Assembly (NCBI RefSeq): GCF_965118125.1
Contig: NZ_OZ221287.1
Span: forward strand, 423,238 to 487,237
DNA from: Pararobbsia alpina
Lineage (GTDB): Bacteria; Pseudomonadota; Gammaproteobacteria; Burkholderiales; Burkholderiaceae
Reading direction: 5' to 3'
Length of the DNA stretch: 64,000 nt
Notes under the pieces: generated by a model
Told to the model about the DNA's origin: nothing
The model's database searches: none
Seen by the model: the letters and a program-made list of their open reading frames with translations, nothing else
Part shown: positions 6,564 to 55,194 of the stretch, piece after piece
Position numbering within the stretch: position 1 is the first letter of the stretch
Layout: each line of letters opens with the position of its first letter
Position numbers and translations under genes: made by a program

Positions 6564-7441
6564 ACGCCACCTTGTCGAATCTTGGCCGAGGCCTGCTGAG
6601 GATGCGCCTTGCGATTGCCCGGATGGGCATCGGAGCGTCGTTCGCCGCCGTGCTCTTGCTCGGCGCCGCCGGGCTATGGGTCGTGGTGTTGCCTGGCGTG
6701 TCGACGCGGGTCGACGACCAGGCTCACGCGGTGGCGCTTGCGCGCAAGGCGCCTTTGCCGAAGCCCGTCGTATCGGCCCCGGCGTTGGCGTCGCAACGGC
6801 TGAATGCGTTCTATGCAGGGCTTGGCGATGGCGCACACACGGAGCAAATCGTCGGTCGCTTATTCGACGCTGCTTCGGAAGCCGGTGTCGTCCTTGATCG
6901 CGCCGAATACAAGCCCGCGCACGATGTGCCAGGTCGCTTCGATACGTACACCGTGATCTTGCCGTTGAAGGGCGACTACTCGAGCCTGCGACGCTTCAGC
7001 GAAAAAGTGCTCGTCACGATGCCTTATGCGGCACTCGACGATATGCGCTTCAAGCGCAATTCCGCGGGCGACCCGATGGTCGAGGCCAACCTGCGCTTTA
7101 CCGCATTTTTGCGGCCGGTGACGTGGGCGCCGATGGCGGCGGCCGCACCGGCAACCGCACCGGCGACCGCAGCCCCAGCGGCAAGCGACGCAGCAAGTGC
7201 CGCGTCGATCGCAAGTGCATCATCGGCAGCATTGCCCACTGCGTCGTCGGCCGTGGCAGCACCGGTACCCGCAGTGAGCGCTCCCATCAGAGTCGTGGAA
7301 TCCGGATCGTCGTCAGTATCCGTAACGGGGACGATTACCGTTATATCGCACGGCGCGACAGATATTCCGGCGATGCCGACCGTGCCGTTACCACCGTCTA
7401 TGGCACTGGCCCGAGATGCGACGCGCGAGGGACGTCCATGA
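6542..7441 (+). CDS. PilO/GspM-like inner-membrane protein with a Pro/Ala/Ser-rich C-terminal linker
   Basis: N-terminal TM (GASFAAVLLLGAAGLWVVVL), a periplasmic domain, then a low-complexity APATAPATAAPAAS tail. The start may be at 6602. Confidence 0.45.
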   Translation: MAGDGIVNATLSNLGRGLLRMRLAIARMGIGASFAAVLLLGAAGLWVVVLPGVSTRVDDQAHAVALARKAPLPKPVVSAPALASQRLNAFYAGLGDGAHTEQIVGRLFDAASEAGVVLDRAEYKPAHDVPGRFDTYTVILPLKGDYSSLRRFSEKVLVTMPYAALDDMRFKRNSAGDPMVEANLRFTAFLRPVTWAPMAAAAPATAPATAAPAASDAASAASIASASSAALPTASSAVAAPVPAVSAPIRVVESGSSSVSVTGTITVISHGATDIPAMPTVPLPPSMALARDATREGRP

Positions 7442-30308: not shown

Positions 30309-30384
30309 GGGGCGTTAGCTCAGTTGGTAGAGCAGCGGACTCTTAATCCGTAGGTCGAGTGTTCGAGTCACTCACGCCCCACCA
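30309..30384 (+). tRNA. tRNA-Lys (CTT)
   Basis: GGGGCGTTAGCTCAGTTGGTAGAGCAGCGGACTCTTAATCCGT...GAGTGTTCGAGTCACTCACGCCCCACCA. Seven-bp acceptor stem, anticodon loop CT-CTT-AA and encoded CCA. Confidence 0.85.
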
Positions 30385-30521: not shown

Positions 30522-31361
30522 CTACTGTACGTCGACTGTCGCGGCTGCCTCAACACCGTTCACCACCTCTCGCAAGAACCGGTCAAGCAAAACGACTTCT
30601 CCTTCCGGTCGCTTGTATTCGCGATCATGCTCGGCGTCGGCCAACATGCTCTCGATCAAAGCGTGGATCGCCGGACGGCGCGGTCCGTATTCGCCTTCCG
30701 TCGCTTGCATCTTCAACGCGAGCAATGCGTCGACTTCCGCGAGCAGTTCAGGATCGTGGACGGTTGCCGCGACCAGATCCGCGAATCGCATCGGCGGCAT
30801 GCCCAGCCCGGCATCGATCCAGCGAACGGCCAGCAAAGGCCGTAGAACGTACAGATACTTCTTGTACCGGACGGTCTCGTCCTTCAAATAGCCGCGGAAG
30901 TTCTTTTTCGCCATCGACAGGTAGTGGTGACGACCTCTCAGCGGAGAAAAGAATGCCGTCGCGAGTTCGCGCAAGCGAGGCGCCCACGACGCATCTTCCC
31001 GATACGTCACCGGCGAATCGAGCCACTCGAGCAACGTCGGGTTCGATCGATGCAGCAGCTGAAGCGCCTTTCGTAGCTCCCAGCCGCTGACGTCGAGCAC
31101 GTCGTCGATCGGCCGCTCGATCACGTCGCGTTGAGGTTCGACACGCAAGTACCAATCCCGCCGATGGACATAGACGAACCGCACGTCATAGTCGCTATCC
31201 GGCGACGCAAAGCCCCATCCGCGACTCCCCGATTCGCAAGCGAACAACACCCGAACATCGTGTTGCCGCTCGACGGTCCTGAGTTCCTCCATCACACGTT
31301 CACGCACAGCGGGATCGATCGGGTGCGCACTGCGCACCGTCGTCCGTTCTTCCCGTTTCAT
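30522..31361 (-). CDS. Pol-beta-superfamily nucleotidyltransferase (COG3541-like)
   Basis: hG[GS]...D.D NTase signature VLFACESGSRGWGFASPDSDYDVRFVY. 279 aa, last gene of the operon driven by the sigma54 promoter at 33093-33108. Confidence 0.6.
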   Translation of the reverse strand: MKREERTTVRSAHPIDPAVRERVMEELRTVERQHDVRVLFACESGSRGWGFASPDSDYDVRFVYVHRRDWYLRVEPQRDVIERPIDDVLDVSGWELRKALQLLHRSNPTLLEWLDSPVTYREDASWAPRLRELATAFFSPLRGRHHYLSMAKKNFRGYLKDETVRYKKYLYVLRPLLAVRWIDAGLGMPPMRFADLVAATVHDPELLAEVDALLALKMQATEGEYGPRRPAIHALIESMLADAEHDREYKRPEGEVVLLDRFLREVVNGVEAAATVDVQ

Positions 31362-31430
31362 TTCAAACTCCCCGATGCAATCAGCCGGCGGTGCAATGAT
31401 TGAATTGCAACCGCCGGCACAACCTGTTTC

Positions 31431-32570
31431 CTACGTCGGCTTGATGCTCACTAGACCGTTCAGCACCTGGTCGAGTCCCCCGAACACCGAAATGCGATCG
31501 ATACGCTCCGCAATACGTTCAAGGGTTTCGAGCTCCTTGAGTCGAAGCGCGGTCGGGTTTTCTTCCATGACCTTGGCAGTGTTCAGCAGAGAGCGCGTCG
31601 CCGCAGTCTCTTCGCGGCGGCGGATCACATTGGCCTGAGCCGCTTTCTCCGCCTCCACAACCTGCGCAAGGATCGTCTTCATGTCACCCGGCAGCGTGAT
31701 GTCCTTCACACCGACACTGCGCACGTCCACACCGGTGCCCTCCATACGGGCTCGCACCTGTTCGATCACGCTTTCGTCGATGACCTGCTTGTTCTCGAGC
31801 AGTTCGTCGAGCGAACGCGTTCCCACGGCCGAGCGCAGCGCGAACTGCAACTCGCGATAGAGATGATCGACCGGTTTTTGCAGCTGTCCGAATGCGCGCA
31901 GTACATCGACGTAGCTCCAGCTCGCCGCCAGCGTGAGGCGCAGCGTGACCTTGTCGCGGGTCAGAATCTCCTGTCCCGATACTTCGAGCGCCTGCAGGCG
32001 CTTATCGACCAGATCCACCGACACGTCGCGCCCATAACGCCAGAAGCCCGACACGCCCGGTTCGAGCAAGCGCTCCACCTTGCCGTCGACCTTGAGCACA
32101 CCGACGTTGTAGGCCGGCACGTGCGCAAGCAGCACACCCGCAAGCCCAGTTGTCGCCCGAGTGCGCAGCGCCGGCAGTTGCAGTTGCGTCACCAGATCCT
32201 GCGGCAGCGCAAATCCGGCGCGCAGGTCGATCGTCTCGAGACGATGCGCGATTTGCCCTTGCCAGTACAGGCGGCGCGTGCCGGGCGCGAGCACCTCAAC
32301 GAGCATGTCGTTCTCGTAACGCAGCCCGACCTGGGTGTCGGCCAGATCCATCGGCACAAAGTAGCGCGACACGACGTCCGTCGCCGCGCAACGCAGATAC
32401 TCGCCCAGCGACGCATCAGCGAGCGGCTCGTCGAGCTGGCACGTCTTGACGGTGAGCCGACCAAACGGATCGAAGGCACGGAACACACCCGGTTCGAGCA
32501 CCTTCACGAAGTCACCCTCGCTCATCAGCAGGGCGCGCTCGTTCTTCTTCACTACAACGCGGTTCCACAT
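31431..32570 (-). CDS. SPFH/band-7 (slipin/stomatin-like) domain protein with a roughly 150-aa N-terminal domain of unknown function
   Basis: Start trimmed to MWNRVVVKKNERALL at 32570. The central SPFH domain and the C-terminal coiled-coil/Ala-rich segment (AQVVEAEKAAQANVIRRREETAATR) are typical of band-7 proteins. Confidence 0.7.
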   Translation of the reverse strand: MWNRVVVKKNERALLMSEGDFVKVLEPGVFRAFDPFGRLTVKTCQLDEPLADASLGEYLRCAATDVVSRYFVPMDLADTQVGLRYENDMLVEVLAPGTRRLYWQGQIAHRLETIDLRAGFALPQDLVTQLQLPALRTRATTGLAGVLLAHVPAYNVGVLKVDGKVERLLEPGVSGFWRYGRDVSVDLVDKRLQALEVSGQEILTRDKVTLRLTLAASWSYVDVLRAFGQLQKPVDHLYRELQFALRSAVGTRSLDELLENKQVIDESVIEQVRARMEGTGVDVRSVGVKDITLPGDMKTILAQVVEAEKAAQANVIRRREETAATRSLLNTAKVMEENPTALRLKELETLERIAERIDRISVFGGLDQVLNGLVSIKPT

Positions 32571-32789
32571 GACATTGTCCTTTTTTTGTTGCCCGCCGGG
32601 CACGCGCGCCGGATGGATCGCGGAACGACGCGAACGGGTGGGTGTCGCGAAACGGCTCGCAGCCTTCGAAGCAATGCGCATGCTCTTGCATTGCCGCGTC
32701 GACTGCACGTCGTCCGCCTGCCCAGCCGGTCACGCGGGACCGAAACCGATCCGACGCGCGACGGGCCTTTCGGCCCGCGCCAGCGGTGA

Positions 32790-33082
32790 CTACCTGAATC
32801 CCCGGCGGAGACCGGGAGCGCGGGACTCGAACCCGCGAGCCGTCAGCCGAAGCCGTTGGCATTACCTTTCCATTTCTTGCTTGGTCAGTGCACCGGGAAT
32901 CGAACCCGGATGACGTCGCCAGACGCACTACGATTTGCCTTAGTACCTGCGGGCGGCATGCGCAGCCACGACGCTCCCGGTTCCTCGCATGCAACGTCAG
33001 TCGCCGCGGGTTTCGGGTTCGGTGTCAGCGCACCAGCAAGGCTTTGTGAACCTTGGCTCGTGGGCCTGCAGGACATCCGGCG
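32790..33082 (-). ncRNA. Candidate structured ncRNA with two tRNA-like modules (Y-RNA-like or tRNA-mimic), transcribed from the sigma54 promoter
   Basis: Module A (plus coordinates 32882-32930, read on the minus strand) is UAGUGCG-14 nt-CCGGG-UUCGAUU-CCCGG-UGCACUG-A-CCA. This is an acceptor-stem plus T-arm minihelix with a canonical T-loop and a 3'-terminal ACCA. Module B (about 32793-32870) is GCGGG-UUCGAGU-CCCGC followed by the hairpin CCCGG-ucuccg-CCGGG. The 700-bp intergenic space is unusually large for this genome. Confidence 0.3.
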
Positions 33083-33092
33083 GTTTCCTTAT

Positions 33093-33108
33093 TGCGAGGA
33101 CCGTGCCA
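33093..33108 (-). promoter_or_regulatory. Sigma54 (RpoN) -24/-12 promoter driving the ncRNA-SPFH-NTase operon, divergent from rtcR
   Basis: The minus strand reads CTGGCACGGTCCTCGCA, against the consensus TGGCACG-N4-TTGCW. The GG and GC dinucleotides are correctly spaced and there is one mismatch in the -12 box. It sits 160 bp from the rtcR start, leaving room for activator sites. Confidence 0.5.
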
Positions 33109-33269
33109 GCGCGGCGTCGATTGCGCGGGGAAGCGGCGCAATCCCTTGCCAGGCTTGGCTCGAGGCAACGAGGCACGTTGACAGGGCCTTGACCGAGGGT
33201 GCGCATGACGGTGTGAGGTATCCTCAAATTCTGATACGCTGATATCGCACCCGATATTTGTAGATAAAC

Positions 33270-34865
33270 ATGCGAAAGACCGTTGCGATTGGTTTTCTCG
33301 GCACTGTGCTCGACCTGGGACGGCGCGCGCGTCGATGGCAAAAGTGGCGCCCTACGGTCAGTCTGTGTACCCAGCCCGACATGCCGGTCGACCGGCTCGA
33401 GTTGCTTTACCCGCCGGACTACGACCGATTGGCCAATCGCGTTCGCGAGGACATCGTTGAGTTGTCACCACGCACCGAGGTGCGGCTGACGCCGGTCGAA
33501 ATCGGTAACCCGTGGGATTTCGAAGAGGTGTACGCGACGCTGCACGATTTCGCTCGCGGCTACGCTTTCGACGTGGACGCGGAGGACTACCTCGTCCACA
33601 TCACCACGGGCACTCACGTCGCGCAGATCTGCTGGTTTTTGCTCGCCGAGGCCCGCTACCTGCCTGCGCGGCTCGTGCAGACCTCACCACCCGAGCATTC
33701 GGACGACGGTCCGAAAGGCCCAGGCGAGATATCGGTCATCGATCTCGATCTGTCACGATACGACCGCATTGCACAACGATTCACGCGCGAACGCGACGAG
33801 ACCGTTTCCTTCCTGAAAGCAGGCATTGCGACGCGCAATGCCCGGTTCAACGCCTTGATCGAGCAGCTCGAACGCGTCGCCGTGCGATCGCGGGCGCCGA
33901 TGCTGCTGGTCGGGCCGACCGGAGCGGGCAAATCGTTTCTTGCAAAGCGCATCTACGAACTCAAGCACGCGCGACACAAGCTCGCTGGGCCCTTCGTTGA
34001 AATCAACTGTGCGACGCTGCGTGGCGATGCGGCCATGTCGACGTTGTTCGGCCATGTCAAAGGCGCTTTCACAGGAGCACAGAGTGCGCGGGCCGGCCTG
34101 CTTCGCGCTGCCGACGCAGGGCTGCTCTTCCTCGATGAAATCGGCGAACTGGGCCTCGACGAGCAAGCGATGTTGCTCAAGGCCATCGAAGAGAAGCGCT
34201 TTTTGCCGGTCGGCGCCGACATCGAAGCGACAAGCGATTTCCAGTTGATCGCCGGCACGCATCGCGATTTGCAGCGCATGGTGAGTGCGGGAGCGTTCCG
34301 GGAGGACCTCTATGCGCGTATCAATTTGTGGACCTACGACTTGCCGGGCCTCGCTGATCGTCGCGAAGATATTGAACCGAATCTTGACTATGAGCTCGAT
34401 CGGTTCGTCGAAGCCAATGGCGAACGCGTTCGATTCAATGTGGAAGCCAAACGGCGCTATCTGGATTTTGCGACGTCGACTCACGCGTTGTGGCCGGGCA
34501 ATTTCCGCGAGTTATCCGCATCTGTTACGCGGATGGCCACGTTGTCGGATGCGGGTCGCATTACCGAAGCCAACGCCGTCGAAGAGGTCACGCGCTTGCG
34601 ACGTTCGTGGCGGTCCGGCGATACGGAGTCGAGTCGCGTCGCTGTGCTGCTGGGCGAGCGCGCCGCCGAAATCGACTTGTTCGACCGGATGCAGCTCGAA
34701 CAGGTGCTGCGTGTCTGCGCAGCGGCGACAAGCATTTCCGAAGCCGGACGCGCCTTGTTCGCGGTGTCACGTGCGAACAAGAAGCAGCCGAACGATGCAG
34801 ACCGGCTGCGCAAGTATCTCGCGCGCTTCGGCGTCGAATGGGACAGCATCGCCTCGCTGCGCTGA
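33270..34865 (+). CDS. rtcR: Sigma54-dependent transcriptional activator RtcR (CARF-like N-domain, AAA+, HTH)
   Basis: Conserved RtcR-type N-terminal motifs MRKTV..GF.GT.LD....RW.KWRPT and NPWDFEEVYA.LHDFARGY......EDYL.HITTGTHVAQICWFLLAEARYLPARL..SPP. AAA+ Walker A GPTGAGKSF, the GAFTGA sigma54-contact motif, and the C-terminal NDADRLRKYLARFG tail. Confidence 0.9.
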   Translation: MRKTVAIGFLGTVLDLGRRARRWQKWRPTVSLCTQPDMPVDRLELLYPPDYDRLANRVREDIVELSPRTEVRLTPVEIGNPWDFEEVYATLHDFARGYAFDVDAEDYLVHITTGTHVAQICWFLLAEARYLPARLVQTSPPEHSDDGPKGPGEISVIDLDLSRYDRIAQRFTRERDETVSFLKAGIATRNARFNALIEQLERVAVRSRAPMLLVGPTGAGKSFLAKRIYELKHARHKLAGPFVEINCATLRGDAAMSTLFGHVKGAFTGAQSARAGLLRAADAGLLFLDEIGELGLDEQAMLLKAIEEKRFLPVGADIEATSDFQLIAGTHRDLQRMVSAGAFREDLYARINLWTYDLPGLADRREDIEPNLDYELDRFVEANGERVRFNVEAKRRYLDFATSTHALWPGNFRELSASVTRMATLSDAGRITEANAVEEVTRLRRSWRSGDTESSRVAVLLGERAAEIDLFDRMQLEQVLRVCAAATSISEAGRALFAVSRANKKQPNDADRLRKYLARFGVEWDSIASLR

Positions 34866-34989: not shown

Positions 34990-35511
34990 TTAACGATCGA
35001 GGTCAGCGATCTGTTGCAGCGACAGTCCCATTTGGCCGCGCAGAAACTTCGCCATCGTCCAATACGGCAGCGCGTGTTCGTCCATCGCGCCAAACGTGTC
35101 CCTGTAGAGCGGCAACCAGCGCAAGGCGGCCTCGATGCGCTGTTCGCGTGTCGCCTCCTGCCTGTGCTCGCCGTAGGGAAGGCTTCGATGGTGAATAAAG
35201 AAACGACCGGGCAAGCGCTCTTCACAAAGCGTTTTGTATTCGCGCGTTTGCAGGATCAGGTAGTGCCAGACGTCGTCGATCTCTTGCTCGACAGGCAGGA
35301 ACTGCCCGCGCAGCGACGCTGGGTGAGCCGAGACGAGGTAGAGATACCGGAGGCACTCGATGATCCGGTGTTCCGCATCTGCGCTATCGGTCTCGCTTTG
35401 TTGCGCGACATGCAGCACGGTTTCTTGATAGAGACGAGGGCACACGAGCGACCTGAGTGTCTTGATCGACACAAGACCTGGCGACGGGCAGCGCGATGCG
35501 GCGTCATTCAT
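34990..35511 (-). CDS. Hypothetical protein (start may instead lie upstream at 35685, placing the octamer repeat in-frame)
   Basis: 174-aa ORF from MNDAASR..., or 231 aa from the upstream ATG. No recognisable domain. An octamer tandem repeat lies 50-110 bp upstream of the short start. Confidence 0.4.
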   Translation of the reverse strand: MNDAASRCPSPGLVSIKTLRSLVCPRLYQETVLHVAQQSETDSADAEHRIIECLRYLYLVSAHPASLRGQFLPVEQEIDDVWHYLILQTREYKTLCEERLPGRFFIHHRSLPYGEHRQEATREQRIEAALRWLPLYRDTFGAMDEHALPYWTMAKFLRGQMGLSLQQIADLDR

Positions 35512-35563
35512 GGAAATCGTTGACCCCGGGGGGCTCCGCGGCGGATAGAAGATGGGTACAGTC

Positions 35564-35619
35564 TTGACCCGCTGACCCGCTGACCCGCTGACCCGCTGAC
35601 CCGCTGACCCGCTGACCCG
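35564..35619. repeat. Octanucleotide tandem repeat (CTGACCCG)x6 plus one imperfect unit
   Basis: TTGACCCG then CTGACCCG x6, read directly from the sequence. Confidence 0.95.
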
Positions 35620-35724
35620 CGGGCTCGTCGGCAGCGTTGTCGCACGCGAGATTCGCTTCAGCGACGTCCTCACCCGGCCACGCACAATCTAGTGTGGCCG
35701 TGATGAGGTGCAGGGCCCGCTGAA

Positions 35725-54773: not shown

Positions 54774-55194
54774 GCCGGAGTGCCGGAAAGCGACGCAACA
54801 TCGTCCCGACACCGTCTCGCTTGCGCTCACTGCCAGGTCGTCATTGAGCGCAGGCAAAAAAATAGCCCGCGTAGTCAAGCTACGGCGGGCTAAATCCATA
54901 TCGGAGGACATGGAGGAGACGGGTTCAATGTACCGGGTCTGATTTTGCGCCGCAACAAGAAAAAATTAAGCGCTTGACCCCTTGTACGGGTAAACGTGGG
55001 CCTGGCACGCTCGATGCCCTGTCTGGCATGGCTCTGCAAGCCTTACGTGACAAGGCTCTGCCGTAAGCTGACAGAGCGTAATCGTTTGCGCAAACCCCTA
55101 TTTTGCCCAATCCGAGAGACTCCTCTAGCCTCTGATCGGAAAAAATGGTGTGGTGCACATACGACTCATCTGTCGCGCGCGTAACCGGCTCGCG

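Follow-up and report, generated by a model that had tools for sequence, protein, structure and literature searches.

What becomes of an RNA-repair operon when the ligase around which it is normally built is missing? The question is raised by a locus of Pararobbsia alpina (contig NZ_OZ221287.1, positions 423,238 to 487,237; hereafter the window, meaning the whole 64,000-nucleotide stretch of DNA that was analysed), where the gene for the activator RtcR diverges from a unit predicted to carry a structured leader RNA, an SPFH/Band-7 protein and the nucleotidyltransferase RlaP. A preliminary description of this locus had taken it for an undescribed RNA-damage or tRNA-surveillance module, in which the SPFH protein and the nucleotidyltransferase had replaced the ligase and the cyclase (RtcB and RtcA) as the effectors of RtcR. 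Our results point to another answer. The locus is most probably an RtcR-controlled RNA-repair operon of the Band-7/b7a-tRNA/RlaP class, normally centred on RtcB, from which a clean deletion has removed the rtcB gene that stood between those for SPFH and RlaP.

The link to the Rtc system had been recognized correctly, and profile searches against Pfam confirmed the proteins on which it was based. RtcR matches PF06956 in full length at residues 2-185 (E 6.8e-83) and the Sigma54_activat domain PF00158 (E 1.4e-49), that is, it combines a CARF-like N-terminal domain with a sigma54-interaction AAA+ domain. Downstream of the predicted sigma54 promoter, the listing of open reading frames (ORFs) together with Pfam yielded two ORFs only. 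One encodes the SPFH protein (PF01145, Band_7), whose earlier band-7 assignment holds, and the other encodes RlaP (PF10127, "RNA repair pathway DNA polymerase beta family", E 8.5e-98, profile positions 1-248 of 249), earlier called a COG3541-like or PF10127-like nucleotidyltransferase. The latter gene does converge on a tRNA-Lys gene, as had been stated (coordinates are collected in Table 1). The reported absence of RtcB, RtcA and Ro60 was likewise upheld within the 64-kb window: tblastn with the RtcB proteins of Burkholderia and E. coli found no match, E. coli RtcA found none at E<=1, and no TROVE domain was present in the operon ORFs or in 10 other ORFs scanned, the largest included.

What distinguishes this operon becomes clear from the SPFH loci with which it was compared, which are designated here by L-numbers (L086 and L087 are the nearest relatives, L005 is from the B. 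cepacia complex, L009-L012 are from Pseudomonas, L032 is from Lonsdalea iberica and L044 from K. oxytoca). In L086 and L087, which with SPFH identities of 80% and 82% are closer than any other relative available, RtcB is encoded directly after the SPFH protein, and the order is rtcR <> SPFH-RtcB-RlaP on the B. cepacia-complex chromosome and RtcB-PALP-rtcR <> SPFH-RtcB in Cupriavidus necator. At the junction where L086 and L005 carry an rtcB gene of about 1.2 kb flanked by two GC-rich hairpins, the window has 69 nt with one such hairpin. Because RtcB lies between SPFH and RlaP in the relatives, we interpret the window as the product of a lineage-specific rtcB deletion, and not of an effector substitution: in most relatives RtcB is found together with its supposed replacements, and the difference amounts to a 1.2-kb deletion. 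The operon is highly modular, and RlaP is itself absent from some close Burkholderia relatives (L007, L008 and L087 have SPFH-RtcB without it). In our census of 80 genome loci, where gene combinations were counted for loci with enough flanking sequence, RtcR was accompanied by both RtcB and RlaP in 11 cases, by RtcB in another 11, and by RlaP without RtcB in four, window included, while the rest were without RtcR. The genome scan found no locus identical to that of the window, the arrangement of which was matched only on two short Logan contigs, from samples ERR14208477 and SRR34139756.

The genes left behind by the deletion remain under purifying selection. Pairwise dN/dS values between the window and its relatives are 0.09-0.12 for rtcR, 0.16-0.20 for the SPFH gene and 0.08-0.11 for RlaP, to be compared with 0.13-0.21 among the rtcB-containing relatives. 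In RlaP, moreover, none of the residues shared by all of 14 orthologues has changed, those of ESGSRGWGF..SDxD among them, and the Pol-beta motif hG[GS]...DxD with its third carboxylate (S44-G45-S46, D57, D59 and D79/E82/D90) is invariant. The full-length ORFs, the low dN/dS and the invariant residues of RlaP argue against a decaying relic; a recent relaxation of selection on the three genes may still be compatible with the dN/dS values.

The class to which we assign this locus was already in the literature. SPFH/Band-7 proteins, the tRNA-like b7a-tRNA and RlaP are published accessories of RtcB operons (Burroughs and Aravind 2016, as cited in 10.1101/312249 and PMC12776372), and RlaP was named by the same authors for its place in RNA-ligase operons (NAR 2016, as cited in PMC12776372). 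Hence the module cannot be called undescribed. The abstract of the 2016 paper reportedly pairs SPFH/Band-7 with "a novel tRNA-like molecule" and with a novel nucleotidyltransferase, in agreement with the citing papers. The rtc locus of P. aeruginosa PA14 contains the SPFH gene paFlo8 alongside RtcA and RtcB (PMC13086221), and the Pseudomonas rlaP genes sit between rtcB and rtcA under RtcR control (PMC12776372); Hughes et al. 2020 contains no mention of Band-7 or RlaP. The window shares with such operons (L005, L009-L012 and P. aeruginosa) an orthologous RtcR, a sigma54 promoter, a leader with tRNA-like modules, and the order and orientation of its genes, with identities of 76-82% for SPFH (Burkholderia) and 82-85% for RlaP. 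Its slipin-type SPFH gene is orthologous to the RtcB-adjacent ones, but the linkage to RtcB is gone; the cloverleaf of the leader is degenerate, the 5' domain of the leader holds a 33-nt insertion, and the rtcA gene carried by the Pseudomonas versions is missing too. With the better known E. coli rtcR/rtcBA and Salmonella rtcR/rsr-yrlBA-rtcBA operons, the likeness consists of an RtcR gene divergent from a sigma54 promoter with a similar CGAT-N8-ATCG repeat upstream and, for Salmonella, of a tRNA-mimicking RNA within the transcript of the repair genes, which in the window is a prediction. The differences are the absence of RtcB, RtcA and Ro60 and an RNA other than YrlA/YrlB (no Rfam match); where Salmonella has the TROVE-domain protein Ro60, the proposed RNA partner in the window is the SPFH protein.

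Control by RtcR would be exerted through TGGCACGGTCCTCGCA, a -24 GG / -12 GC element that is divergent from rtcR, lies ahead of the effector operon and is predicted to be a sigma54 promoter. Since the window contains five sigma54 matches with one mismatch, where 2.2 would be expected, this match by itself is weak evidence. The element is unchanged in seven related intergenic regions, and among about 85 SPFH loci a sigma54 motif is present in all those linked to RtcR but L013. The RtcR-less loci are without a clean sigma54 motif; L080 and L081 have a degenerate CGGCAC, and L039 has a single match at a distance. The divergent promoter proposed in the preliminary description is thus corroborated, as a sequence element, by the pattern search, by its invariance in seven loci and by its co-occurrence with RtcR. 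About 125-140 bp upstream of the -24 element, adjoining the rtcR start codon, is an inverted repeat (CGAT-N8-ATCA) that we regard as a candidate RtcR binding site. Where this candidate site aligns in the Burkholderia loci (columns ~22-40 of alignment A2) the sequence is CGATCTGATTGTATCG, and the E. coli rtcR-rtcB intergenic region (L091, ~6895-6910) contains CGATATTTCATTATCG, a repeat of the same type. A repeat of the form CGAT-N8-ATCG (ATCA in the window), some 130 bp upstream of a sigma54 promoter, is common to E. coli rtcR-rtcB and the Burkholderia SPFH loci.

The transcript made from this promoter would begin with a leader of about 370 nt which, judging from comparative alignments, is a structured RNA of several domains that shows strong covariation. 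Earlier it had been described as about 300 nt of structured RNA with two T-arm/acceptor modules; the structured RNA and the two T arms stand, but the leader is longer, has additional domains, and its second module is a remnant. It is conserved along its whole length in the seven related intergenic regions. Across 24 leaders of beta- and gammaproteobacteria, helices P2 and P3 of the 5' domain have 91% of their cells paired (slid controls: 35-50%) and 17 pairs with changes on both sides, the observed value being reached by none of 500 shuffles. This 5' domain is kept even in Pseudomonas loci without a T arm, and the window-specific insertion, of ~33 nt, lies in the P3 loop. In the 3' domain one helix (columns 383-386 with 478-481 of alignment A6) is supported in 24 sequences. 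A tentative closing stem pairs 33081-33063 with 32727-32709 and would put the 5' end of the RNA at the expected transcription start; it shows a compensatory change in the window (U-A in place of the C-G of the relatives), and Cupriavidus has another in the adjacent pair. The broad alignment of 24 sequences did not yield this long-range stem, probably owing to poor alignment at the ends. When the leader was folded as a single sequence, the result was no better than for shuffles (z = -1.14), which means that thermodynamics alone is uninformative in such GC-rich DNA and that the structural support comes from covariation. When the leader region (32500-33350) was searched against Rfam, at the gathering threshold and at E<=10, there was no YrlA, Y-RNA or tRNA match, and matches were at chance level only. 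The leader contains two copies of a similar short motif, which reads (C)CGCCGGTGC in the relatives and GCTGGTGC / CGCTGGCGC in the window; one copy follows P2 and the other the tRNA-like modules (A6 columns ~63-77 and ~378-390; window ~33043-33030 and ~32790-32778). A helix comes after each copy, and the motif may be a repeated protein-binding site.

The two tRNA-like modules, with T-arm hairpins at ~32909-32893 and 32837-32819, have fared differently. Module 1 is an intact minihelix (32930-32882, UAGUGCG...CCGGG-UUCGAUU-CCCGG-UGCACUG, then an encoded ACCA), which consists of an acceptor stem and a T arm, without a D arm and without an anticodon arm. The upstream module is of this minihelix type throughout the betaproteobacteria, its T stem covaries across 27 sequences, and NCCA follows the acceptor stem in ~20 of 27 relatives, according to our reading of alignment A3; in Rfam, module 1 gives a weak match to the mascRNA model, itself tRNA-like. 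The downstream module of the 27 betaproteobacterial loci is a full cloverleaf by RNAalifold on a plain MAFFT alignment, with 97.5% of cells paired (35-52% with slid partners) and 15 of 23 pairs changed on both sides, values that 0 of 500 shuffles reached. In the relatives this module scores 45-56 bits on the Rfam tRNA model, and its anticodon loops are not conserved, some being 7-nt loops with various anticodons and others tetraloops. The window keeps the T arm of this module and a C(UUCG)G hairpin (32855-32844), and it alone among the 27 sequences has lost the pairing of the acceptor stem and of all four D-stem positions; module 2 had no match to the tRNA model even at E<=10 (RF00005, 32500-33350). 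ARAGORN called neither leader module; the only tRNAs that it found in the window are tRNA-Phe and tRNA-Lys.

More generally, T-arm-like hairpins (5 bp and a TTCGANT loop) with covarying stems are found 250-600 nt upstream of almost every SPFH homologue (80 genomes, many phyla), and many of them are called by ARAGORN as tRNA or "tRNA-???" with aberrant anticodon loops. We considered the possibility that decay of the cloverleaf tracks the loss of rtcB. This idea is weakened by L087, where RtcB is present and the cloverleaf is already eroded, and by P. entomophila and P. soli (L010, L041), which have RtcB and SPFH and keep the 5' RNA domain with no T arm or tRNA-like module.

As for the SPFH protein, its N-terminal region had been thought to be a novel domain and turned out to be typical of the family: it consists of two extra tandem copies of the beta unit that normally precedes the SPFH core, and these occur family-wide. 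In the AlphaFold model (pLDDT 85) three tandem beta units, with the common pattern ...V..E.G.....G.....L.PG..., are followed by an SPFH core resembling that of stomatin and by a long helix at the C-terminus; stomatin in the PDB matches residues 151-356, in the C-terminal two thirds of the protein. The start codon is almost certainly the ATG at 32570, and not the GTG at 32708, because a ribosome-binding site (AAGGA) precedes the former and the homologues have 379-382 aa. These homologues, annotated "slipin family protein", are 76-82% identical across Burkholderia (B. cepacia complex), Paraburkholderia and Cupriavidus, and the whole family comprises 556 representatives of 50%-identity clusters at E<1e-30. 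No hydrophobic or transmembrane segment was found in the protein, which is predicted to be soluble. In Foldseek, matches to MVP alone cover the N-terminal repeats. The vault particle, made of MVP and vault RNA, thus offers a likeness, although as a structural analogy only, with N-terminal tandem beta repeats leading to an SPFH-like domain and a long helix, and with a small structured RNA.

For RlaP, a PDB sequence search gave no match, and clues to its activity come from two Pseudomonas orthologues (P. fluorescens and P. aeruginosa), which add one or two nucleoside monophosphates to the 3'-OH of damaged RNA (PMC12776372, 2025 preprint). By analogy, the RlaP of the window would add one to two of them to RNA 3'-OH ends.

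The absence of rtcB is not a peculiarity of the window. Apart from it, RtcR and RlaP without RtcB were found in Klebsiella oxytoca, in a Klebsiella sp. and in Superficieibacter, as well as in Lonsdalea iberica (L032), whose locus had too little flank for the census. In the neighbourhood of RtcR, the SPFH-RlaP pair without rtcB does recur, a point that the preliminary description had proposed to check; most RtcR loci of the census carry RtcB. The rtcB-less loci of Enterobacterales have a sigma54 promoter and one T-arm minihelix, and no cloverleaf. In E. coli, genes annotated "slipin family protein" and "nucleotidyltransferase domain-containing protein" form a slipin-RlaP pair in 1632 of 5426 complete genomes (~30%); rtcB is present in 4858 of the 5426. 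In strain IAI39 (NC_011750.1 4622738-4625190; L088:5789-8241; ECIAI39_RS22195/RS22200), this unit is flanked by yjbD and a prophage; it has one T arm and a TGGCACGCTTCTCGCA promoter of its own, and neither rtcR nor rtcB is adjacent; rtcR <> rtcB-rtcA is on the same chromosome, 570 kb away. An rtcB gene located elsewhere under RtcR control, which the preliminary description had considered damaging to its own interpretation, is therefore found in this homologous case. The orphan E. coli unit is probably a second, unrecognised member of the RtcR regulon. Orphan units of Enterobacterales such as those of K. oxytoca (L044) and IAI39 resemble the window in having SPFH-RlaP without adjacent rtcB, a sigma54 promoter and a single T-arm minihelix, and there too an intact cloverleaf is absent, but their leader is shorter (~310 nt), identity to the window is 55-57% for RlaP and ~56% for SPFH, and the E. 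coli form is without adjacent rtcR. The rtcB-less SPFH-RlaP units of Enterobacterales and that of the window are independent evolutionary events.

Other neighbours of the SPFH gene also deserve mention. In several RtcR-less loci (L058:2533-6670, L042, L054, L062, L071, L016, L030, L040 and L019) the SPFH homologue is directly downstream of a large same-strand tRNA array, with 25 tRNAs in L058, 16 in L040, 10 in both L019 and L054, and 9 in L042. RtcB is often encoded downstream of SPFH in these loci, and this ties units of SPFH and tRNA-like RNA to "tRNA array" islands. Genes downstream of SPFH in RtcR-less loci mostly have no Pfam match. The clustering of neighbourhood ORFs was noisy owing to GC-rich shadow ORFs, and the only extra recurrent neighbours were an HNH endonuclease gene ~1.1 kb upstream of SPFH in 13 loci (for example L020:5890-6483) and a small treble-clef zinc protein, PF13451, encoded between SPFH and RtcB in nine loci (for example L009:8169-8567).

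Table 1. Features of the rtcR-SPFH-RlaP locus and their positions in the window
Feature	Position	Strand	Basis or remark
rtcR, sigma54 enhancer-binding activator with N-terminal RtcR/CARF-type domain, 531 aa	33270..34865	+	Pfam
Candidate RtcR upstream activating site, imperfect inverted repeat CGAT-N8-ATCA	33232..33247	.	Read from sequence
Predicted sigma54 (-24/-12) promoter TGGCACGGTCCTCGCA	33093..33108	-	Pattern search; predicted transcription start ~33082
Predicted structured leader/ncRNA, ~370 nt	32709..33081	-	RNAalifold on 6 close relatives and conservation throughout
Leader 5' domain, hairpin P2 (33058-33035) and helix P3 (33033-33022 with 32969-32958)	32958..33058	-	Covariation
tRNA-like module 1 (minihelix)	32882..32930	-	Sequence and T-stem covariation
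tRNA-like module 2, degenerate remnant of cloverleaf b7a-tRNA	32819..32880	-	Covariation in relatives
Leader 3' domain, three hairpins (~32816-32801, 32780-32761, 32760-32731)	32728..32816	-	RNAalifold on close relatives
SPFH/Band-7 slipin gene, 379 aa	31431..32570	-	Pfam Band_7
SPFH-RlaP spacer, 69 nt, one GC-rich hairpin	31362..31430	-	Junction comparison with L086 and L005
RlaP (PF10127) Pol-beta-fold nucleotidyltransferase gene, 279 aa	30522..31361	-	Pfam
tRNA-Lys(CTT)	30309..30384	+	ARAGORN; convergent with RlaP gene

Two further observations concern the surroundings of the locus. About 700 bp downstream of rtcR (35565-35620), TGACCCGC is repeated seven times in perfect tandem, in or adjoining a 231-aa ORF (34990-35685, minus strand) for which Pfam gave no match. 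At 54857-54921 on the minus strand, Rfam identifies RF02278, "Betaproteobacteria toxic small RNA", with 50.5 bits against a gathering threshold of 50, which fits the Burkholderiaceae origin of the window.

If the pieces are assembled under the reading that we prefer, in which the locus is a former RtcB-centred operon, the CARF-like domain of RtcR would sense RNA damage and activate the divergent sigma54 promoter, the signal perhaps being, as work in Salmonella suggests, tRNA fragments with cyclic-phosphate ends. The resulting transcript would open with the structured leader, ACCA-ended minihelix and decayed cloverleaf included, and might be processed to a stable RNA. By analogy with Ro60 and Y RNA, and in line with a published proposal, the soluble and oligomerising SPFH protein could form a scaffold or cage with this RNA, while RlaP would extend the 3'-OH ends of damaged RNAs, nibbled tRNA halves for example, by one or two nucleotides, as its Pseudomonas orthologues do. 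Sealing would then fall to a ligase encoded elsewhere, or might not take place. Since selection still acts on the three proteins and on the core of the RNA, the reduced module probably retains a function, that of an accessory arm in the Rtc response.

Several points weigh against this reading. The cloverleaf, which is the best-conserved part of the RNA in the relatives, is degenerate in the window, and this could reflect a partial loss of function; the closing stem of the leader, moreover, was obtained by RNAalifold from only six closely related sequences. The b7a-tRNA, placed with Band-7 beside RtcB, is an RNA that was never validated (10.1101/312249, 2018, Wolin and Ferre-D'Amare laboratories), and deletion of paFlo8 in P. 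aeruginosa had no phenotype in the standard assays used, none of which probed RNA damage.

Alternative explanations account for some of the same facts. The SPFH protein, RlaP and the minihelix RNA might constitute a self-sufficient, ligase-independent module of the RtcR regulon, where RlaP would restore or tail the 3' ends of tRNAs, or of the minihelix, within an SPFH cage. The independent origin of RtcB-less RtcR+SPFH+RlaP loci in Lonsdalea, Klebsiella and Superficieibacter, the orphan sigma54 unit in so many E. coli genomes, the purifying selection on the genes and the fact that every rtcB-less version has a T-arm minihelix and none an intact cloverleaf would all agree with such a module. 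We nonetheless deem it rather unlikely: with rtcBA elsewhere in IAI39 and rtcB in most E. coli genomes, cooperation in trans is at least as likely, the products of RlaP have been proposed to be substrates for later ligation (PMC12776372), and L087, with RtcB yet an eroded cloverleaf, weakens the correlation between cloverleaf and RtcB. That the locus is a relic, functionless since rtcB was lost and heading to pseudogenisation, might be argued from the missing ligase gene, from the D and acceptor stems of the cloverleaf, lost in the window alone, and from the 33-nt leader insertion. This insertion, however, is confined to a hairpin loop, the promoter, module 1 and the helices of the 5' domain are intact, the closing stem has a compensatory change, the three ORFs are full length and keep the family-invariant residues, with dN/dS values (0.08-0.20) not above those of the rtcB-containing relatives, and analogous rtcB-less units persist in many Enterobacterales, all of which makes decay improbable. 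Least credible of all, in our opinion, is the original proposal of an undescribed system with SPFH and nucleotidyltransferase in place of ligase and cyclase. The operon content was described accurately, with no RtcB, RtcA or Rsr, but the SPFH protein, the tRNA-like RNA and RlaP are accessories known from the literature and occur side by side with RtcB in most relatives, a deletion without any exchange separates the window from them, and the N-terminal region of the SPFH protein is that of its family.

A more specific idea, possible but doubtful at this stage, is that SPFH-RlaP, the sigma54 promoter and the minihelix form a separable second arm of the RtcR regulon, in which the cloverleaf serves RtcB, and decays where RtcB is not encoded in cis, and the NCCA minihelix serves SPFH and RlaP. 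If this were true, the minihelix might, for example, nucleate the SPFH cage, or act as a primer or decoy for RlaP.

To our knowledge, the Band-7/b7a-tRNA/RlaP branch of RNA repair, predicted since 2016, has remained nearly untested, its RNA has gone undetected, and the role of the SPFH protein is not known. The biochemistry of RlaP was first reported in a 2025 preprint. Our findings refine a known system and overturn nothing that was known; the locus is notable only in that it derives from such an operon without keeping the ligase and that its cloverleaf has decayed. The leader, with its covariation support, lends itself to Northern blots or RNA-seq and to the definition of an Rfam family. Ligase-less natural variants of this kind reveal which components travel together, and they provide simple genetic systems for SPFH and RlaP alone, among them common E. 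coli strains whose slipin-RlaP unit lies apart from rtcBA. SPFH, RlaP and the minihelix thereby appear to form a unit that can be separated from RtcB.

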